NCBI GenBank assembly: GCA_965285975.1
Contig: CBDIWR010000361.1
Location: forward strand, 1 to 39,660
DNA: 39,660 nucleotides
From: an uncultured bacterium
Lineage (GTDB): Bacteria > Chloroflexota > Chloroflexia > Thermomicrobiales > Thermomicrobiaceae
Reading direction: 5' to 3'
A program made the translations under genes and the position numbers. Shown piece by piece: positions 12,456 to 30,572 of the stretch. The notes beneath the pieces were generated by a model, which was given only the letters and a program-made list of their open reading frames with translations, was not told where the DNA came from and did no database searches. Position 1 is the first letter of the stretch. Each line of letters opens with the position of its first letter.

Positions 12456-12875
12456 GCCCGCGACGGCGCCGTGCTCCCGATCCTGCACCTCAATGGTTAC
12501 AAGATCAGCGGTCCGACGGCGCTTGGTCGCGACAGCGACGACGACATCCGGGCCTTCTTGCAGGGCAACGGCTACGAGGTCTTTTTCGTTGAGGGCGACG
12601 AACCCTCGCTCGTGCACCAGTCGTTCTCGGCGACGCTCGACCACTGCTACGAGAGGATCTTGGAGATCCAACGAGCGGCCCGCGAGTACGGCGTCTTCGA
12701 GCGGCCGCGCTGGCCGGCTATCGTGCTGCGCACGCCGAAAGGCTGGACGGGACCGAAGGTCGTCGGTGGTCTTCCGGTAGAAGGCACCTTCCGCTCGCAC
12801 CAGGTACCGTTGGCCAGCGTGCGCGATAACCCGGAGCAACTCGCGCTTCTCGAAGCCTGGATGCGCAGCTACTAA
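12456..12875 (+). pseudogene. xfp: Internal fragment of phosphoketolase
   Basis: [21 protein letters not shown]...[19 protein letters not shown]...[12 protein letters not shown]...LEAWMRSY*; ~140 aa of an enzyme normally ~800 aa, truncated at both ends. Confidence 0.9.
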
Positions 12876-13163: not shown

Positions 13164-13940
13164 ATGGGTCACTTGCGCCTCGGTCGGTTACCACGAACGA
13201 TGCATTGGCAAGGGGTTGTTGGGCTGCTCGATGACTCGCCTGACGACATTCCCGCCGTTGCCCGAGCTACGGTTACGGCGGCCGAAGCACGCATGCGCGA
13301 GTTGTCCCGAGATCCATCACTTACCTATTGCTTCTGGATACTCACCCGCGTCATGGTCGCGTCCCGGGAGTCGGACTTCCGCTCGGCCCTCCAAGGGCTC
13401 AGTATCAAGCCTGCATCTAGTGATTCGGCGCTGGCCTTCGTTACCGAGTTATCCGAGCAGGTACGGAATGAACTCACTGCCTATCCCCAATCTGGACCGT
13501 TTGGGGAGCTCGCATCGCTCGCATTGCGTCGGGCTCTGTCCGAAACAGCTGGTGTACACGGTCGATCACTCTTCGGCAGCTCCCTCGAAGACGTCCATCA
13601 TGCGTTTCGAAGCCACTCGTCCCCCGATCGTTTCGGCGATGTGGCGCGGCGATTCTTCGGTGACTTTCTCGCGCGAACGCTTCAATTCTTCGTTGACAAG
13701 GAACTGTCAAATCACGTTGGAAGTGGGGGTCAGCTTCGCGGTATTGAGGCAAGCCGGGAGTTTTCTGCGGCTCTGGATGTCTATACACGTCAGTCGGCCC
13801 GCATCGTCGAGGAGTTCGCATCAGGATGGTATGGCAAGCACAACTGGGAGTCCCAAGGAGCGATCAGCCGTGAGGAGGCGCAAGGCTTCGTCGCAGTCGC
13901 GCTGCGCAAACTCCGGATGGAACTGGTGCGGTCGACCTGA
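13164..13940 (+). CDS. Hypothetical helical protein, QatB-like partner of the QueC-family enzyme
   Basis: 258 aa, starts MGHLRLGRLP (Gly2); stop overlaps the next ATG (TGATG 13938-13942); size and position as for qatB; homology not demonstrated. Confidence 0.75.
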   Translation: MGHLRLGRLPRTMHWQGVVGLLDDSPDDIPAVARATVTAAEARMRELSRDPSLTYCFWILTRVMVASRESDFRSALQGLSIKPASSDSALAFVTELSEQVRNELTAYPQSGPFGELASLALRRALSETAGVHGRSLFGSSLEDVHHAFRSHSSPDRFGDVARRFFGDFLARTLQFFVDKELSNHVGSGGQLRGIEASREFSAALDVYTRQSARIVEEFASGWYGKHNWESQGAISREEAQGFVAVALRKLRMELVRST

Positions 13941-16000
13941 TGAGTGTTGTGCGTGCTCTGTTTCAATGCGACTCGGCAGAGATTCCGGTGGATCTTGCCG
14001 CCCAATCCTGGGATGTCCGTAAGCCAATTAATATGAATAACAGTACTAACGCATCGCTGAACCTCCACGCCCAAGGATTCGCCGCGAAGGTTTTGACTGC
14101 CGTCCGGAACCGGGCTGCCGACTTGATACGCATTGCCTCATATGCCTATGCTGCGGATCAGGAGGTCTCACGAGGAGGTGAGACTGATGTGTACGGTAGA
14201 AAGTGGCGGCGCCAACTCGTTCTCTGTGCTCCTGTGGCGGAACCAGACTTCTGGACAGATGCCTCGGTGATCTCAGGTCTTGAAGATGTCCTGCAGTTCC
14301 TGACAGGTGACACGTGGGAGTTTCATTTTAGCCGAACTCCACGCCGCCCTGTACAGATATCCTATCCTGTCGATGAACCGGAGCTTCTTGGCCGTCCCGA
14401 CGCGATAGTACTCTTTTCAGGTGGTGCTGACAGCTTATGCCTCGCAGTCGACTCAATTGGCATTCAGGGCCGTCGACCGCTACTGATCAGCCACACACCT
14501 GCACCCCATATTAGTGCTCGCCAGCGATCCTTGGCCGATCACCTGCGGTGCAGATTTCCGGAATGGTTCTTCCCTCACGTGAACTTCTCAATCCACCGCA
14601 TGAAGTCGGAAGCAGCCGATAACAGCCAACGCTCACGGGGTTTCCTATACGCCTGTCTCGGCGCAGTGGTGGCGAGTGAACTCAGCGTATCCGACGTGTT
14701 CCTCGGGGACAATGGTGTGATCAGTCTGAATCTTCCTATCAATGGGCAGTTCGTTGGCGCCCTAGCCAGCCGAGCGACACATCCGAAGTTCCAATACCTC
14801 TTCAACCGGTTCGTTGCCAACGTATTCAGCTGTCCGGTTAAAGTCACGAATCCGCTATGGGTAAGAACACGTCCGGAGACGCTAGAGGTTCTCAATTCGA
14901 CCAATTGCGGTGATCTCCTTCAGGAAACGACATCCTGCAGCCGTGCTCGTGGGCGCCCACAAAGTTCACCGCACTGTGGCTACTGTTCCCAGTGCGTCGA
15001 TCGCCGTTTCGGCTCGATCGCCGCTGGACTCGCAGAGCATGATCTCGGCGAACGATACGGCGTAGATATTTTTACTGATCCTTTGGATCAGGGCGAACAA
15101 CGCACCATTGCTGAGTCCTACGTTCGTTTTGCCCGCAATGTGCTCCAGACGTCGGAAGACGAGATGTTTGATGCATATCCTCAGCTGTTCGACGCATTGT
15201 GTCCCGGCGATCCATCGCAAGCCGAAACTGCTCAACAGCTCGTGAGCTTACTGAAACGTCACTCCGTCAGCGTTCATCAAACGCTGACGGGTATGATCCG
15301 GCGCCATAGCTCTGAACTGGCAGCGGGTACGGTTGCGGAGACGAGTTTGCTTCGGCTTGCAGTGGGAAGTGCGCCTAGAATCGTTTCTCCGTCTGATCAG
15401 GTTGGAAACTGCATCCGCCGGGCCGGCGATACCTGGTCTGCCACCTATACGGGTCGCACGATCCAGGTAAAACACGGCAAAGGTATCGCCTACATCGCCT
15501 ATTTGCTGACTCACCCCAATCAATCCATTAGGTCCATGGATCTTGTGGCGCTCGTTGACCCACCTGCTCAGAGTGATCTGAGTCGTAGGATGAGCGCAGA
15601 GCAAGCTAAAGCAGAGGATCTGACCACATCCGATATGAATGTCCAAGATGAGTTGTTCGATGACCAGACTCGACGCCAAATCAGGACTCGACTCGCTGAT
15701 CTTGAGCATGAACTTGTGAAGGCTAGATCTGCGCAGGATACAGATCGCGTCCAACGCCTTCAGAACGAAACCCTAGACCTCAAACAATATCTAAGATCAG
15801 GTACTGGCCTTGGTGGCCGTCCTCGGCCATTCACCAGCCCGGCTGAGAATGCCCGCCGCGCGGTCTCTAAGGCGATTCACCGAGCCATGGAGACTATTAG
15901 CACCTACCATCCACAACTTGGTCGTCACCTCGTAAGTAGCCTCAAACTCGGTGCCTCTTGTACCTACTCACCAGAATTACCAACCGATTGGAACAGCTAA
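13940..16000 (+). CDS. QatC-like QueC-family (PP-loop) protein with an extra C-terminal regulator-type domain
   Basis: YAADQ, LFSGGADS, SQRSRGFLY, DNGVISLNLP, SRATHP, NPL, TTSC...HCGYCSQCVDRR zinc site; ~200 extra residues after aa ~485. Confidence 0.88.
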   Translation: MSVVRALFQCDSAEIPVDLAAQSWDVRKPINMNNSTNASLNLHAQGFAAKVLTAVRNRAADLIRIASYAYAADQEVSRGGETDVYGRKWRRQLVLCAPVAEPDFWTDASVISGLEDVLQFLTGDTWEFHFSRTPRRPVQISYPVDEPELLGRPDAIVLFSGGADSLCLAVDSIGIQGRRPLLISHTPAPHISARQRSLADHLRCRFPEWFFPHVNFSIHRMKSEAADNSQRSRGFLYACLGAVVASELSVSDVFLGDNGVISLNLPINGQFVGALASRATHPKFQYLFNRFVANVFSCPVKVTNPLWVRTRPETLEVLNSTNCGDLLQETTSCSRARGRPQSSPHCGYCSQCVDRRFGSIAAGLAEHDLGERYGVDIFTDPLDQGEQRTIAESYVRFARNVLQTSEDEMFDAYPQLFDALCPGDPSQAETAQQLVSLLKRHSVSVHQTLTGMIRRHSSELAAGTVAETSLLRLAVGSAPRIVSPSDQVGNCIRRAGDTWSATYTGRTIQVKHGKGIAYIAYLLTHPNQSIRSMDLVALVDPPAQSDLSRRMSAEQAKAEDLTTSDMNVQDELFDDQTRRQIRTRLADLEHELVKARSAQDTDRVQRLQNETLDLKQYLRSGTGLGGRPRPFTSPAENARRAVSKAIHRAMETISTYHPQLGRHLVSSLKLGASCTYSPELPTDWNS

Positions 16001-16209
16001 GGTCGGGTTTCTCCCTATTCGCGCCATTGCATGGCGCGGACGCGCTACGCATGGTCCCATGTGCACCCTTCCGTGACGCGCCTAAAGAGTAGGGACATCA
16101 ACTCGGGTCGTACGCCTCCGTGTGAGAGCGACTGAACGGTGTCAGCCGTCACCGTTCGCGACCGCTCGTCGACGTCCCTCGACAATAGGTACGGGGATGA
16201 CGAGCACTC

Positions 16210-16431
16210 ATGACTCGACAAAGACCGACAAAGTCGCTCTTGGACCAAACGCTTGAGGTTTGGCAGTCGCGATCGTCACGGGTACTTACAGGTGAAGACG
16301 CACGTGAGATCGTCGAGAATGTCAGCGGCTTCTTTCAACTCCTCCTCAAGTGGGATGCCGAGGGAAGAGTATCGCCAACGGTAGATGGGGCTGACGATAG
16401 CGAGCCGACCAGTGAGAACCGGTGGGCTTGA
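16210..16431 (+). CDS. Small hypothetical protein (73 aa)
   Basis: LLDQTLEVWQSRSSRVLTGEDAREIVENVSGFFQLLLKW, helical pattern; TGATG coupling to the next gene. Confidence 0.7.
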   Translation: MTRQRPTKSLLDQTLEVWQSRSSRVLTGEDAREIVENVSGFFQLLLKWDAEGRVSPTVDGADDSEPTSENRWA

Positions 16432-17699
16432 TGAGTCTCTGTGATGACGTCGAGAGCGACGCATGGCGGATGGTGAATGACCGGTTGGCCATCAACGAGA
16501 GTGGCGATCATAGTGAAGCGTTGACTCTCACCCCACAGGTTCCGGGCCCAACCGTGATACAGCTGCATCTTCCCGGACTTGAGGATGTTCCCCTACCACG
16601 GCGTCGACGAATGAGCAGAGCGCGTCGACAGACGGAGCAGCTAAGCCTAGATCCACTCGTGGACACCTATCTTCTGCGTTTACGCAGTCGTGGAGCAGCA
16701 GTGAAGGGGTTGCAGGCGTATCGGTATCAACTTCGGGCCGTTGCACGGCTCGCTCAGAGCGCGGCTGGACACCCCGTCACTATGGGTGAGCTATTTTGCG
16801 ACCCATCTCTCCTTGGACGAGTACTGGTTGATGACATGGCACCAAACCATGGATCTCAGTTGTCGAAGTGGACGTTGGCCCAACGGCGCTCAGCTATCCG
16901 CAGCTTCGTGACACTCATGCGCCCTGAACTCTTCGACATTGCTAGCGCGGACCCTCACTTGCTGTTGAATCAAGCACTTCAAAGCGTCGCTGTGCGCATC
17001 GGCGCCGGTTACCGATTGACCGGTGGAACCCCTCGACAGCGCGGCGGCTATGCGCCACGCAGGGACGAGGTTCAGGCGGTTCTGAAGGCCGTCTCGACCG
17101 CAGAAGGGTTCCTAGGTCCGAGAAACCTTGCATTCTACGGAATTCTCGCGGCCACAGGTTCACGAGTTAACTCGCTGCGTGCGTTGGATAGCGGAAGTTG
17201 CGTTCAACTCCTAAACGGATGCATACGCCTGTTCTTGCATGAGAAAGGTAAACACGAACCACGCGAAGTCGAGCTGGGACGTGAATTATCGTCGGCGCTG
17301 CTCACCTATCGTGACATGTTCAATGAATGCGCGGCCCAGGCCGGCTGGAGGGTAAGGATCCAATTGGGCGAGTCCGGTCTTGTCTGGCGGCAACCGGGAG
17401 GTAAAGGATGGCGCTATCACGAAATTCTGAGAACACTGCGGGCGGGTTGTGCAACTGCCGAGGTGCTGGAGTTCTCTCCACATTCCCTCCGGAGAGCCTT
17501 TGCAAGCGATGCTGCTACTCTGCTTCCCCGCCACACGGTGGCACAGGCTGGAGGCTGGAAGGGACTCGAACGCTTGGATGACCATTACATTCAGCCTCGT
17601 GAAGGAACAATCTGGTCGAAGCTCGGGTGTATTGCGGCCCAGCGAACGACGCCTGAGATCGTGAAGGTAAAGACTGATGCACCAAGTGTCCCTGTTTGA
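16431..17699 (+). CDS. Tyrosine recombinase (catalytic residues present)
   Basis: TGSR, EKGK, PHSLRR, GGW, DDHY give R-K-H-R-W-Y; ATG 16431 overlaps the previous stop. Confidence 0.85.
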   Translation: MSLCDDVESDAWRMVNDRLAINESGDHSEALTLTPQVPGPTVIQLHLPGLEDVPLPRRRRMSRARRQTEQLSLDPLVDTYLLRLRSRGAAVKGLQAYRYQLRAVARLAQSAAGHPVTMGELFCDPSLLGRVLVDDMAPNHGSQLSKWTLAQRRSAIRSFVTLMRPELFDIASADPHLLLNQALQSVAVRIGAGYRLTGGTPRQRGGYAPRRDEVQAVLKAVSTAEGFLGPRNLAFYGILAATGSRVNSLRALDSGSCVQLLNGCIRLFLHEKGKHEPREVELGRELSSALLTYRDMFNECAAQAGWRVRIQLGESGLVWRQPGGKGWRYHEILRTLRAGCATAEVLEFSPHSLRRAFASDAATLLPRHTVAQAGGWKGLERLDDHYIQPREGTIWSKLGCIAAQRTTPEIVKVKTDAPSVPV

Positions 17700-18720
17700 T
17701 CACTTTGATCGGCAACCGAAAAACCGCGCTTTTGATTCGGAGTCAGAGCGTTTACTCAAGATTTTTGCTGAGAAGAGGAGCGCAGACGGCGCACATCCCC
17801 GTTCGGTCAAGCGCGAGGTGAGTCAACTCCGATCCCTCGCTGGTGAACTTCAGGTCGAGTCTGATCTGATTTCGCTTACTGTCCTGTTCCGCGATCTGAG
17901 ATTGCTTGCTCAGGCGCTGTGCGAGCCTCGTTCGTCAATTGCGCGTTCGACGGGTCGTGTCCGCTATGTAGCCGCGCGGCGTTTCATGGAATTTGTGGCA
18001 CCACTCCTCGGAAGGGATGCCCGTAGGGATCTGCTCACGCTGGATAGCTACCTTCCGGCGGGGCGTCGGACGGCTTGGCACTCGACAGGTATTGTCGTTG
18101 CCGGTGCCCCAAGCCGCCGAAGTCGACGGGCGGTCAGCCTGGACTGGTCGCACCTCATCCAACTCGTCGATACTGCATCAACGGCAGAAACATCAGTCCA
18201 AACTATTCGCAATGTCGCACTGGTGGCGCTTCATTGCTTCAGCGGACTCCGTCCGGAGGAAATAGTCCTACTCCAGTGGAAGGACATTGCGACCGATTAT
18301 TCGCCCTTCGATGATCGTCATCACTTCAAGGTGAGAGTGAAACGTGCCGGTCGGGATCTATGGCTACCGCTTGTGTCCCCGGCCGTGAAAGCAATTACCT
18401 CGTTGGCAACCTCGTTCGCATGGCGGTCCGATCCACGGTCAGGGCCACTCTTTGAAAGCCGGAATGGAGTTGGAAGACCGTTGGGGTATCGCGCAGTCCG
18501 GATGATCCTGAAGGAGGTCTGCCGAAGGGCAGGGTTACCGGCCGTTGAGGCGATCGATTTACGTGCCGCGTTTGCGTATGGACTCCGAATGCGCGGGCTT
18601 TCCGACCACGAAGTCGCCGCTGTCCTCGGATTGGCCCAGGTTCGTAGCCTGGACCGCCTACTGCGGCGACACATGGCATTGGATGCGCAGCGCAAAGTGC
18701 GCGAGATCCTTGACCTGTGA
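17677..18720 (+). CDS. Tyrosine recombinase-like protein, apparently catalytically inactive
   Basis: SGLRPEE..LQWKDI box I intact; box II reads IDLR (no His), LGL (no His/Trp), SLDRLL (no Tyr); 23-nt overlap with the previous gene. Confidence 0.82.
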   Translation: MHQVSLFDHFDRQPKNRAFDSESERLLKIFAEKRSADGAHPRSVKREVSQLRSLAGELQVESDLISLTVLFRDLRLLAQALCEPRSSIARSTGRVRYVAARRFMEFVAPLLGRDARRDLLTLDSYLPAGRRTAWHSTGIVVAGAPSRRSRRAVSLDWSHLIQLVDTASTAETSVQTIRNVALVALHCFSGLRPEEIVLLQWKDIATDYSPFDDRHHFKVRVKRAGRDLWLPLVSPAVKAITSLATSFAWRSDPRSGPLFESRNGVGRPLGYRAVRMILKEVCRRAGLPAVEAIDLRAAFAYGLRMRGLSDHEVAAVLGLAQVRSLDRLLRRHMALDAQRKVREILDL

Positions 18721-18819: not shown

Positions 18820-19080
18820 ATGATGAGTGACGTACATACGTATCTGCAGATACGGGATGCCGCGCGCTATTTGGGTGTGTCGACCGCGACACTACGAAAC
18901 TGGGATCGAGCCGGAAAGATACAGGCCTATCGTCATCCGGTTAACAACTACCGATTGTTCAGCTGTGACGATCTCAGGTCAATCTTGCGTCAGATTGAGC
19001 AGTCGCAGTCGAAGGCTGTTCCGGCTGGCGCTCCTTCGGGACAAGAGCACCAGACGCGTGATGAGGAGATCCGTCAATGA
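18820..19080 (+). CDS. MerR-type HTH / excisionase-like protein
   Basis: YLQIRDAARYLGVSTATLRNWDRAGKI.AYRHPVNNYRLF; GGAG RBS; ATGA overlap with the recombinase. Confidence 0.88.
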   Translation: MMSDVHTYLQIRDAARYLGVSTATLRNWDRAGKIQAYRHPVNNYRLFSCDDLRSILRQIEQSQSKAVPAGAPSGQEHQTRDEEIRQ

Positions 19081-20639
19081 GGACACGGCGAGGTAGCGGT
19101 GCACGACTTGGCTCGACTGAGCGGCGCCTAGCCGTAATCTACGCGCGTGTGTCCTCTAAAGAGCAGGAGCGAGAAGGTTTCTCTGTCCCGGCTCAGCTCC
19201 GCCTTCTCCAGGAATACGCCCGGGAACAGGGGTTCATCGTTCTTGAGGAGTTCGTCGATGTCGAAACTGCGAAACAAAGCGGTCGAACTGGCTTCGGTCA
19301 GATGGTGCGCTTTCTTAAGCGTCGATCCAACTCGTGCGGTGTGATTCTGGTCGAGAAAACTGACCGACTTTACCGAAACCTCAAAGACTGGGTCACGATC
19401 GATGAGTTGAACGTGGAAATCCACTTCGCCAAAGAGGGTGCCGTGCTGTCGGATGACTCCCGTTCATCTGAGAAGTTTATGCACGGCATCAAGGTCTTAA
19501 TGGCGAAGAACTACATCGACAACCTGTCAGAGGAAGTCCGTAAGGGCATGACTGAGAAGGCTGAAGAAGGAATCTGGCCGAGTCGCGCTCCTCTAGGCTA
19601 TCAAAATGTGGAGCGGGTTGATGGAAAGCGGGTCATCGCTCTTGACCCTGATGTGGCCCCGCTGGTTCGTCAGATCTTTGAGTGGTATGGCACGGGACGA
19701 TATTCTCTGACCGATCTTACCAAGCTAGCATCTGATGCGGGGCTTCGCTTTCGGAGGGGCGCAGAGGTGCCCAAGTCGACTGTCCACAAGATGCTTCGCA
19801 GTCCGATCTATCAGGGTGACGTTGTTTGGGGTAACCGAACCTATCCAGGGATTCACGAGCCGATCGTGTCGAGAGATTTGTGGGCCAGAGTCCAGGATAT
19901 TCTGGAGGGTCGCGCCGGGAGACATCCACGGTCACGCCGGGAGTTCGCTTTTGCCGGTCTCTTGACTTGCGGTCATTGTGGCTGTGCGTTGACTGCGGAG
20001 ATCAAGAAGGGTCGATACACCTACTATCGGTGCACCGGCTACCGCGGAAAGTGCGGAGAGCCGTATGTCAGAGAAGAAGTGCTCGAGGAGCAGTTCAGTG
20101 AGATCCTTGGTGACCTGCAGCTGGATGCTGATCTGCTTGACTGGCTGACTATGGCGCTCAAAGAAAGCTTTACGGATACGCAGCGCTTTCATGCTGAATC
20201 TATTTCTCGGCTGCGAGAGGAGCACGATCGTTTGCAGCGGCGGCTGGATGCAATGTACGTGGATAAGCTCGACAGTCGTGTCGATGAGGGAACCTATGAG
20301 CGGTTATCACGTGCTTGGCGAGCGGAGCAGGACCGGGTACTGCAGGCTATAGCGCAACACCAGGACGCGAACCAGATCTATCTCGATGACGGCGTGCGCC
20401 TCCTTAGGCTTGCGAACCGATGCCAGGAGCTGTTCGCCCAACAACCCGTCATGGAGAAGCGAAAGCTGCTCAATTTTGTACTTTCGAACTCCTCCTGGAA
20501 ACATGGTACGTTGACACCGGTCTTCCGAAAACCCTTTGATTTGCTTGTCCAGACAAAGAAAATGGCTACTCGCCCGGAGCAACAAAAAACCGCCGGAAGC
20601 CTCTCCGGCGGCAAGTATGATATTTGGCTCCCCGAGTAG
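19077..20639 (+). CDS. Large serine recombinase (integrase)
   Basis: AVIYARVSS catalytic Ser, DRLYR, APLGY, HEPIVS, CGHCG...YYRC zinc ribbon, coiled coil; ends WLPE* inside the tRNA. Confidence 0.95.
   Translation: MRTRRGSGARLGSTERRLAVIYARVSSKEQEREGFSVPAQLRLLQEYAREQGFIVLEEFVDVETAKQSGRTGFGQMVRFLKRRSNSCGVILVEKTDRLYRNLKDWVTIDELNVEIHFAKEGAVLSDDSRSSEKFMHGIKVLMAKNYIDNLSEEVRKGMTEKAEEGIWPSRAPLGYQNVERVDGKRVIALDPDVAPLVRQIFEWYGTGRYSLTDLTKLASDAGLRFRRGAEVPKSTVHKMLRSPIYQGDVVWGNRTYPGIHEPIVSRDLWARVQDILEGRAGRHPRSRREFAFAGLLTCGHCGCALTAEIKKGRYTYYRCTGYRGKCGEPYVREEVLEEQFSEILGDLQLDADLLDWLTMALKESFTDTQRFHAESISRLREEHDRLQRRLDAMYVDKLDSRVDEGTYERLSRAWRAEQDRVLQAIAQHQDANQIYLDDGVRLLRLANRCQELFAQQPVMEKRKLLNFVLSNSSWKHGTLTPVFRKPFDLLVQTKKMATRPEQQKTAGSLSGGKYDIWLPE
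20581..20611 (-). terminator. Intrinsic terminator for tRNA-Asn, encoded inside the recombinase CDS
   Basis: Minus strand CCGCCGGA-GAGGCT-TCCGGCGG-TTTTTTGTT, 13 nt after the CCA end. Confidence 0.8.
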
Positions 20640-20699
20640 GACTCGAACCTACAACCTTGCGGTTAACAGCCGCCTGCTCTACCATTGAGCTATCGGGGA
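20625..20699 (-). tRNA. tRNA-Asn (GTT)
   Basis: TCCCCGATAGCTCAATGGTAGAGCAGGCGGCT-GTT-AACCGCAAGGTTGTAGGTTCGAGTCCTACTCGGGGAGCCA forms a full cloverleaf with encoded CCA. Confidence 0.97.
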
Positions 20700-28478: not shown

Positions 28479-30572
28479 CTATCGTTCCGCCGGCTCAGGT
28501 AGTTGGACCTTGATATGGAGCTCTTGGAGTTGCTCCTCATCGATGGTTGAGGGGGCAGCCAGCATCAGATCCTGTGCTCCCTGGTTCTTCGGGAATGCGA
28601 TCACATCCCGGATGGTGTCCTCTCCGGCTAGCAGCATCAGTGTCCGGTCGATCCCCGGCGCGATCCCGCCGTGCGGCGGCGCACCGAACTCAAGTGCCCG
28701 CAGGAGGTGGCCAAAGCGCTCCTCGACATCATCAACACGGTAGCCCATGATCTCGAAGACTTTGGTCTGGACATCACGCTGGTGGATACGGATACTCCCA
28801 CTACCGAGCTCGACCCCGTCCAACACGATGTCGTAGGCCTTGGCACGAACGCGGCCGGGATCGATATCGAGCAACGCCAGGTCTTCATCCATCACCGCAG
28901 TGAATGGGTGATGGGCGGCATCCCAGCGCGAGCGCTCGGCTTGCCACTCGAAGAGTGGCGGTTCGACGACCCAACAGAAGGCGTGGACGCCCTGATTGAT
29001 CAGGTCGAGTTCTCGTCCGAGATGATCGCGTAGCCGACCCATGACCGGCGCTGCAGTTCCCACCTGGTCGGCGACCAGAAGCAACAGATCGCCCGGCTTC
29101 CCGCCTAGCCGCTCCGCCATTGCCGCGACTTCCTCCTGAGAGAGGAACTTGGCGATCGGCGACCGGGGGACTAGCGCGCCAGACTCGTCCGTTTCCAGCC
29201 CGATCCAGACCAGACCCTTGGCGCCGAATGATTTGACATAATTCGTGAGCCGGTCGGCATGGCTCCGGCCAATATCCGCCAGACCCGGGACCGCGATGCC
29301 GCGTACGACGCCGCCATCCGCGACGGTACCGGCAAAGACGGCGAAGCGGCTTTCAGCCACGATATCACTGACATCACCGATCTCCAGTCCGAACCGGAGA
29401 TCCGGCTTGTCAGAGCCGTAGCGGAGCATCGCTTCGGAGTAGAGGAGCCGCGGGAACGGCTTCTGGAGGATCGGCTTGTCCGAGAGGGATTCGAACATCT
29501 CGGTAAAAAATCCCTCGGTGAGCGTCATCACGTCATCCATCTCGACGAATGACATCTCAAGATCGAGTTGAGTGAACTCCGGCTGGCGGTCGGCCCGCTG
29601 GTCTTCGTCCCGGAAGCAGCGGGCGATCTGGTAATAGCGGTCCATCCCGGCGACCATCAGCAACTGCTTGAGGATCTGCGGTGACTGGGGCAGTGCGTAG
29701 AACTCGCCAGGGTAGATCCGGCTGGGCACTACGTAGTCACGGGCGCCCTCCGGCGTGCTCTTGACCAGGACCGGTGTCTCGATCTCAAGAAAGTCGCGCT
29801 CGTTGAGGTAGTTCCGAAGAAACGTCATCATCCTATGCCGCAGGATCAGGTTGTTCTGCATCCGTGGACGGCGTAGATCCAGATAACGGAATTCGAGACG
29901 TAACGACTCGTCAATCGCCACCTCTTCGTTGATGTAGAAGGGGGGCGTCCGCGATGTGTTGAGCACAATGATCTGGTCGGCATCGACCTCGATCTCGCCG
30001 GTGGCCATCGCGGGGTTTTCGGTCCCCGCCGGGCGCTTTACGACCGTGCCGGTAACTGAGACGACGAACTCGTTCCGGACCATCCTTGCGGCGTCGAACG
30101 CGTCGGCGGACAACTCCGGGTTGGCCACCACCTGGGTAATGCCGTAGCGATCGCGAACGTCGAGAAAAATGAGCCGACCATGCTCCCGGCGCCGGTTGAC
30201 CCAACCCTTGAGGGTCACGGTCTCGCCGGTGTCGTCGAGCCGGAGTTCTCCGCATGAGGCATAGCCGCGCCGCCCGGCACGTTCCAGGAGCGTGGCCTCA
30301 CCTGACACCTTCCCGTTTGGATCAACACCATCATCCGGCGTGGCGAGCAGGATGACATCCACGCCCAGCCCGCTGGCGATTCGCGACAGGACGGTGAAGG
30401 AAGGGACGCTTTGCCCGCCCTCAAGCCGCGATAGGTAGGAGACGGAGATCCCGGTGCGATTGGCCAAGCCGGCCCGCGAGATCCCCTGCTCCTCACGGAG
30501 CCGCCGGATCTTGGGGCCAATGTGCTGTCGCACCGCTTTGCGCGGCTCTGGAGCGGCAGATTGCCTGCTCAT
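28479..30572 (-). CDS. aspS: Aspartate-tRNA ligase with an N-terminal XRE HTH fusion
   Basis: [51 protein letters not shown]; first ~75 aa are an HTH_3/XRE pattern in the same open frame. Confidence 0.95.

Follow-up and report, generated by a model that had tools for sequence, protein, structure and literature searches.

The closest described relatives of the module analysed here belong to qatABCD (PDB 9y01, 9vlk, 9zee). The available part of PMC13279940 reports that QatBC alone suffices for defence, with Gly2 and the active site both required, and describes type IV CBASS, in which a QueC-family enzyme (Cap9) acts on the N-terminal glycine of its partner (CdnD) as a switch. Within the accessible sections of three 2026 papers (PMC13279940, PMC13376578, PMC13639016), the first substrate of QatC, its trigger and the way in which QatB modification stops phage are left open, and QatC activity could not be reconstituted. 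On the output side, the sites of SARP-type regulators are heptamer repeats separated by spacers of 4-15 nt and overlapping the -35 region (PMC10972967).

Here we describe a two-gene module on contig CBDIWR010000361.1 of assembly GCA_965285975.1, which is 39,660 nt long and is referred to here as the window (Table 1). Like qatABCD, the module has the QatC fold and catalytic motifs, an overlapping gene pair, and an upstream all-helical partner with Gly2 whose N-terminus is predicted to lie in the active site. Unlike qatABCD, it is without qatA (KAP NTPase) or qatD (TatD), forms a separate clade, falls below the NCBIfam cut-off, and has a fused swappable output, a DNA array and an integrase neighbourhood; its partner starts with MGHxRLGxLP rather than MGTS and is without the long disordered tail of QatB. 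The module also resembles Cap9-CdnD in pairing a QueC-family enzyme with a partner whose N-terminal glycine would serve as the switch, but it contains no CD-NTase, has an R-x-x-HP loop instead of the Tyr-x-Asp CDG motif, and its output is a fused predicted DNA-binding domain, not a second messenger. With OmpR/PhoB and SARP (AfsR) regulators it shares a predicted fold and repeats at whole helical turns before an operon, whereas its tail has an insert of ~90 residues with a coiled-coil hairpin, its repeats are palindromic and not purely direct, its input is an enzyme-substrate pair and not a receiver or NB-ARC, and Pfam Trans_reg_C does not match it. BirA-type ligase-regulators are adenylate-forming, protein-modifying enzymes fused to a winged helix, and their reaction state can set DNA binding; their fold and substrate are unrelated to those of the module, and the likeness is an analogy only. 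Like the module, the CI/Cro, Stl/Str and AlpA switches lie between integrase and early replication or excision genes, whereas the regulator described here is without a peptidase domain and its predicted input is an enzyme with its protein substrate. The module most likely works as a QatBC-like system at its input and an OmpR/SARP-like one at its output; it is neither a qatABCD system nor a sequence-detectable OmpR member. We found no account of it in the open-access literature; the tables of PMC13329287, of which a part was available, may list these proteins within its QatC cluster.

Table 1. Predicted features of the module and its surrounding island in the window
Feature	Position	Strand	Remarks
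QatB-like partner gene	13164..13940	+	258 aa, N-terminus Met-Gly-His; predicted acceptor protein of the QatC-like enzyme
QatC-like PP-loop enzyme core, aa 1-478	13940..15373	+	SGGxDS, RxRxF, NG, R-x-x-HP, Zn-cysteine and D-x4-R...WxR motifs
C-terminal tail, aa 485-686	15392..16000	+	predicted OmpR/PhoB-type winged helix
Helical hairpin, aa 575-621, inserted between tail helix 2 and the predicted recognition helix	15662..15802	+	model secondary structure
Predicted recognition helix of the tail, aa 634-656	15839-15907	+	model secondary structure
Predicted operator array	16021..16094	+	three 17-bp units with a 21-bp period, then the family terminal box
Conserved small ORF of 73 aa that opens the predicted target operon	16210..16431	+	homologues at the equivalent position in L030, L039, L111
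Tyrosine recombinase-like gene	16422..17699	+	Pfam Phage_integrase E 1.3e-08
Second tyrosine recombinase-like gene	17677..18720	+	Pfam Phage_integrase E 6.8e-12; by eye, other residues seem to stand in place of the catalytic His and Tyr
MerR/HTH_17 protein, likely excisionase (directionality factor)	18820..19080	+	role inferred from family and position
Large serine recombinase, 3' end overlapping tRNA	19077..20639	+	Pfam Resolvase, Recombinase, Zn ribbon
tRNA-Asn, its 3' end being the right border of the island	20625..20699	-	the match to a genome of the same genus and to soil contigs from close relatives ends at 20625

Identity of the enzyme core

The enzyme gene (13940-16000, forward strand) is one uninterrupted frame of 686 aa, which the original prediction described as a QueC enzyme fused to a putative DNA-binding domain. 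We found that residues 1-478 match PADLOC QatC (E 3.6e-59) and that the top Foldseek match of the core is the QatB-QatC structure 9y01_B (E 8.9e-21, target TM 0.78). The family profile retrieved the QatC chains 9vlk (E 1e-57) and 9zee (E 2e-54) from the PDB, and the NCBIfam QatC equivalog NF041925 scored 205 bits, below its cut-off of 280. QatC motifs (SGGxDS, D-x4-R...WxR, RxRxF, HP and Zn-cysteine) were taken from the available part of PMC13329287. When four family members were aligned with eight QatC proteins from plasmids, the catalytic set proved invariant (D61, D73, R78, W89, R91, SGGxDS, R231/R233, N258/G259, R278, H281/P282 and four Zn cysteines), and every catalytic motif is retained in 206-216 of 218 long family members. 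At the position of T278/T280 in Pseudomonas aeruginosa QatC, the substrate loop reads S-R-A-T-H-P in the window and T-R-T-T-H-P in 122 of the 218 long members, with variants elsewhere.

Canonical QueC was rejected on length (686 aa against about 220) and on its Pfam QueC score (20.6 bits, cut-off 22), and the QueC motifs YxQxHxxE, VPxRN and YPDC were not seen in the 686-aa protein. The QueC identity therefore gives way to a QatC-like one; a separate canonical queC lies on another contig of the host genome. Cap9 of type IV CBASS was likewise rejected, since a protein of about 185 aa with a YxD motif would be expected and both length and motif differ, and no CD-NTase was found among the flanking genes of the window or the annotated neighbour families. 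The base conjugation that had been proposed for the enzyme is not established because QatC is reported, in the accessible text of PMC13376578, not to use CDG.

Tail classes across the family

A homologue search gave 208 proteins, of which 120 were listed. Among the matches listed, 116 had tails of at least 30 aa, and these clustered into T1 (the tail of the window, 62), T2 (90 aa, 23), T3 (19), T4 (165 aa, 10) and two singletons. For the loci, we combined the best 80 of at least 587 GTDB relatives, the best 80 of 435 metagenome relatives and the best 80 of 149 IMG/VR relatives with the window. The resulting 241 loci comprise T1 (141), T3 (30), T5 (26), T2 (13), T4 (8), T6 (5), T7 (2), PNP (1) and truncated, split or other forms (15). 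T3 is a DpnII-MboI-like REase by Pfam, and the PD...ExK motif is present in 27 of 28 REase tails; the winged-helix assignments of T2, T4, T5 and T7 and the nuclease assignment of T6 were made by eye only. With the tail of the window present in 62 of 116 clustered tails and 141 of 241 loci, the fusion is not specific to this assembly, and a chimera or recent read-through, the artefact feared in the original prediction, was rejected since the fusion recurs across homologues and loci. Among named GTDB loci, the hosts of T1 include Chloroflexota, Beta- and Gammaproteobacteria, desulfobacteria, Planctomycetota and Myxococcales. One environmental carrier of the module available in culture is Caldimonas manganoxidans (L050).

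In a FastTree phylogeny of 102 cores and six canonical QatC proteins, the family forms one clade (support 0.93). T1 falls in two separate parts of this tree and T3 in several, which suggests repeated tail swaps; this pattern comes from FastTree only.

Several loci merit separate mention. QatBC-like pairs fused to PNP_UDP_1 (L025:9863-12073), a second nuclease-like tail recognised by eye (L075, L148, L149, L153, L156) and REase_DpnII-MboI-tailed T3 loci such as L002 are candidate new defence systems. A split form occurs at L118:3255-6412, where the core ends at 522 aa and the next gene, of 524 aa, ends in the tail and is followed by the array. The enzyme gene is spread over at least two ORF hits in 9 of 241 loci (L011, L023, L029, L030, L059, L080, L111, L117, L146), reflecting decay or assembly error. 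On a Methylocystis plasmid (L260:2426-6158), a different QueC-like gene is flanked by a hypothetical gene and an XRE regulator and lies next to AbiE genes.

The partner protein

The fusion of enzyme and tail stands as originally predicted, while the QatB-like gene and the interchangeable outputs had been missed. We found a homologue of the partner in 226 of 241 loci, and several of the 15 loci without one are cut by contig ends. This 260-aa gene almost always precedes the enzyme gene, and Gly2 is invariant in all 206 complete partner N-termini. A search with the partner profile yielded 1,765 clusters at 50% identity, 1,273 of them at E<=1e-10 (fragments included). No NCBIfam, PADLOC or PDB QatB match was found for the partner; hhalign against eight canonical QatB proteins gave a weak colinear match (probability 16.5%, E 0.0015, 164 columns).

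The predicted complex of partner and enzyme reached an ipSAE of 0.89 compared to 0.00 for the best control. Of 157 solved pairs, 116 attain the mark used for this score, as do 2 of 215 mismatched pairs; since the QatBC structure has already been solved, resemblance to it may explain why the complex passes. Model runs agree in at least 73% of contacts, and the pLDDT of the partner is at least 84. In the modelled complex, partner residues 2-11 contact the active-site motifs and the tail is in no confident contact. The partner is thus predicted to bind the enzyme as QatB does.

Fold of the tail and its other carriers

All tail motifs quoted in the original prediction are present. The AlphaFold2 model of the tail (pLDDT 89.6) consists of three strands, two helices, a long insert with a helical hairpin, a 23-residue helix, a short helix and a beta-wing. 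In a structural search of 48,161 chains, OmpR/PhoB-type DNA-binding domains filled each of the first 12 places (Z 8.8 to 7.4), led by BaeR (Z 8.8, rmsd 3.1, 93 aligned); Z near 8 in this search is moderately above chance only, and unrelated coiled coils reach 7.4. These matches and the model point to an HTH-like fold, and the originally predicted winged-helix-type unit with a coiled-coil insertion agrees with the model. The hairpin may correspond to the loop by which OmpR-type activators touch RNA polymerase. Foldseek of the tail against the PDB and viral models returned nothing at E<=0.001, and the matches weaker than this threshold agree weakly (AfsR at E 0.064, then GlnR, OmpR and CosR). 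Pfam Trans_reg_C was absent for the tail of the window and among the 25 of 60 families listed for 58 tails, a PDB sequence search with the tail profile gave coiled-coil noise, and an ESM Atlas search gave unnamed clusters only.

The tail domain is not confined to QatC. It occurs without a QatC core in 44 of 86 longer proteins analysed and is C-terminal in 42; these carriers include AAA_16/TPR (STAND/TPR) proteins of Actinobacteria, receiver-cyclase proteins and an Anaeromyxobacteraceae hydrolase. The likeness to AAA+/TPR regulators of Actinobacteria and myxobacteria, which had been suggested in the original prediction, is thereby borne out, and since many protein types share the domain, it is an output domain serving many inputs. 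Viral contigs add a further architecture, in which the tail is joined to an unnamed cysteine-containing N-terminal domain of ~230 aa and followed by the array (L289:8082-9434, L326 and L291:5209-6558; also P0162, P0165 and P0171), and in the viral L282 a tail without QatC adjoins an integrase. Proteins of the L289, L326, L291 and L282 type would be a second input to the same proposed switch.

A palindromic array downstream of T1 genes

Straight after the stop codon, T1 genes are followed by tandem 17-bp palindromes (5-bp arms, 7-bp centre) with a period of 21-22 bp and a conserved end box. In the window, the units lie at 16021-37 (with perfectly palindromic 5-bp arms), 16042-58 and 16063-79, followed by the terminal box at 16080-94. 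Using a score devised after the sequences had been viewed, with a cut of 17 of 20, we found that 43 of 62 de-duplicated T1 loci reach 17 and 19 fall below, compared to 0 of 21 T3 loci, 0 of 4 T6 loci and 1 of 38 T2, T4, T5 and T7 loci. As controls, the cut is attained in 1 of 113 stretches lying upstream of the partner gene and in 0.3% of shuffles, and the genome background is ~2% per 130 nt. The array of the window scores 17 and is borderline, since nine places in the window reach this value. The terminal box is present in 38 of 62 T1 loci compared to 3 of 63 other-tail loci and 4% of shuffles. Arm sequences vary by lineage yet stay complementary (73 of 86 against 37 expected, a ratio inflated by selection on the score). 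Covariation between recognition helix and half-site is visible by eye and confounded by kinship. A sigma-70 scan at the array found no promoter, and the terminal box is not a canonical -10; it can form a hairpin, with a T-run in some loci.

We rejected the array beside QatC as coding sequence, given that an in-frame start is found in 0 of 43 arrays, which would encode 33 different peptides. Inner positions contain A-C as well as G-U mismatches and thus show no RNA-specific bias. In 43 of 44 loci from rearranged betaproteobacterial prophages, or 14 of 15 once duplicates are removed, the array lies 5.9-6.4 kb from the gene, on the opposite strand and before the early operon; this counts as one event because these prophages form one clade. 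An RNA element of the module's own 3' end is disfavoured, since the array stays with the early operon in these prophages.

The T5 tail goes with a different repeat. Among T5 loci, 11 of 18 have at least two TGTCAC-type repeats, compared to 3 of 62 T1 loci, and in 15 of 18 the repeat lies 17-21 nt before a -10-like sequence, ahead of related early genes. At the sequence level, the swap of tail between T1 and T5 is accompanied by a swap of site. T2 loci have a weak repeat only (3 of 12), and a repeat search in T4 loci found none (0 of 6). The array also follows the tail domain where QatC is absent, in L263 and L265 (two of three such loci) and in the viral L282, L289 and L326. Control of the adjacent recombinase operon, as originally proposed, is probable because the family-wide array falls within 16001-16209, one of three intergenic regions put forward for DNA binding.

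We also searched in reverse, from the site. This gave 80 viral contigs, 44 of them known from the earlier searches, and each of these 44 carries QatC with a T1 tail. Of the other 36, four have the tail on a different N-terminal domain and 32 show no tail. Many of these 32 are too short, and several long ones are Mu-like phages. Site-bearing contigs without a tail mean that the site alone does not imply the regulator. A near-identical 41-bp copy of the predicted operator is present in Mu-like and other phages (L341, L337, L285 (portal), L314, L298 (transposase), L320, L313 and L315/L329), with no regulator found in their fetched DNA. Of six genes checked, five contain the copy in frame, where it encodes a low-complexity linker, and one (L313) has it on the opposite strand; in L315/L329 it is intergenic. 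The Mu-like copies sit in portal, transposase and repressor-like genes. These copies may be decoys, piracy or a mobile repeat.

Genomic setting

In the window, the pair opens a low-GC island of ~7.7 kb (GC 0.54-0.58 compared to 0.60-0.67 in most flanking bins). The array is followed by the 73-aa ORF, the two tyrosine recombinase-like genes, the excisionase-like HTH gene and the serine recombinase gene. No attachment-site repeats were found at the left end of the island, and reads from four soil runs barely cover it. The partner gene is patchy, being present in 4 of 60 relatives. At the left edge of the island (12471-12875) lies an internal phosphoketolase fragment (XFP_N positions 193-326), and a second phosphoketolase copy was not found elsewhere in the 90%-complete assembly. 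Paired tyrosine recombinase-like genes before a large serine recombinase recur (window 16422-18720, L010, L017, L030), the second gene being apparently inactive. Elsewhere in the window, an aspartyl-tRNA synthetase-like ORF (28479-30572, reverse strand) has an N-terminal XRE/HTH_3 domain (Pfam E 1e-13 to 1e-14).

Across loci, the pair is flanked by a serine or tyrosine integrase on one side and by genes for replication, recombination or excision on the other. Of 57 winged-helix-type loci, 48 have an integrase close by, compared to 0 of 7 enzyme-tailed loci; when viral contigs are excluded, one lies within 3 kb in 30 of 38 compared to 0 of 8. The integrase models derive from these same loci and could overlook divergent integrases in the vicinity of nuclease tails, and kin are not independent. 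In the Comamonas prophage L054, the direction of the array leads to terminase, portal, head and tail genes, and a GpA-type terminase is linked to the module in one of five genomes checked. Three QatA and three QatD queries against the ORFs of the 241 loci found one distant NTPase on the opposite strand (L055) and no QatD, and the only TatD match of the host lies on another contig.

Discussion

The leading explanation, which we hold at about even odds, is that the two-gene module is a signal-gated transcription activator of the adjacent excision or replication operon of a prophage or island. That the tail binds the array and controls the operon appears likely. In the proposed mechanism, the enzyme would adenylate a small molecule and join it to Gly2 of the partner, as proposed for QatBC. 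Partner and enzyme would form a 1:1 complex with the partner N-terminus in the active site and the tail free, and modification would alter the oligomeric state or free the tail. The tails would in turn occupy the 17-bp palindromes, which are spaced by two helical turns, and bring in RNA polymerase. In the window, the target would be the recombinase/excision operon of the island; in full prophages, it would be the early replication operon, so that the module would be a lysis switch. The weakest step is the trigger, which would most likely be the infection-linked signal sensed by canonical QatBC; that this signal is phage infection we suggest tentatively.

We lean somewhat towards activation over repression, even though tandem 17-bp palindromes and a location between integrase and early genes would suit a repressor just as well. 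With the same parts and site, the complex might instead be a repressor that keeps the early or excision operon silent and is switched off by the enzyme reaction; we regard this as rather unlikely. The pair occupies the usual position of a repressor, and its tandem 17-bp palindromes resemble lambda operators. A check of 29 chosen ORFs in the control region of the Comamonas prophage revealed a short LexA-type HTH only and no CI-type peptidase repressor. The OmpR/SARP-type fold of the tail argues for an activator, however, as does the T5 repeat, which lies where a -35 element would be, in a PhoB-like activator layout; moreover, the short LexA-type HTH found upstream in 35 loci could itself be the repressor.

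A module that is anti-phage cargo at an integrase hotspot, like qatABCD, with a tail that senses phage DNA or regulates the module and an incidental link to the operon, is in keeping with the patchy distribution, with the REase or PNP tails of sister loci, near type I R-M genes in 3 of 8 nuclease- or PNP-tailed cases, and with the ability of QatBC alone to defend (PMC13279940). The array, however, is found downstream and not upstream of the module and stays with the early operon after rearrangement, and for the winged-helix-tailed loci we judge such a role improbable; it probably does hold for the nuclease- and PNP-tailed variants. It is very improbable that the array instead serves replication, recombination or partition, forms an RNA structure or is a small mobile repeat, whether tail-bound or not. 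Iterons would also match a period of 21-22 bp, a hairpin forms in the terminal box, and near-identical in-frame copies occur in genes of Mu-like phages with no regulator nearby, but the array also follows chromosomal non-QatC regulators with the tail domain, directly before the downstream gene, and both its non-coding character beside QatC and its inner mismatches, which are not RNA-like, speak against these functions. A wider reading, in which QatBC serves as a general-purpose sensor of infection that also drives the nucleases of defence islands, and in which unrelated Mu-like phages carry operator decoys, is speculative and, taken as a whole, doubtful.

Natural fusions to nucleases, PNP and predicted DNA-binding domains point to QatBC as a sensor whose output can be exchanged, and the winged-helix-tailed version would offer a plain reporter readout for finding the trigger. 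The tandem 17-bp palindrome array tied to T1 genes is new here. Should the module truly be the lysis switch of its lambdoid-type carriers, prophages would have another, new means of deciding to leave the host.
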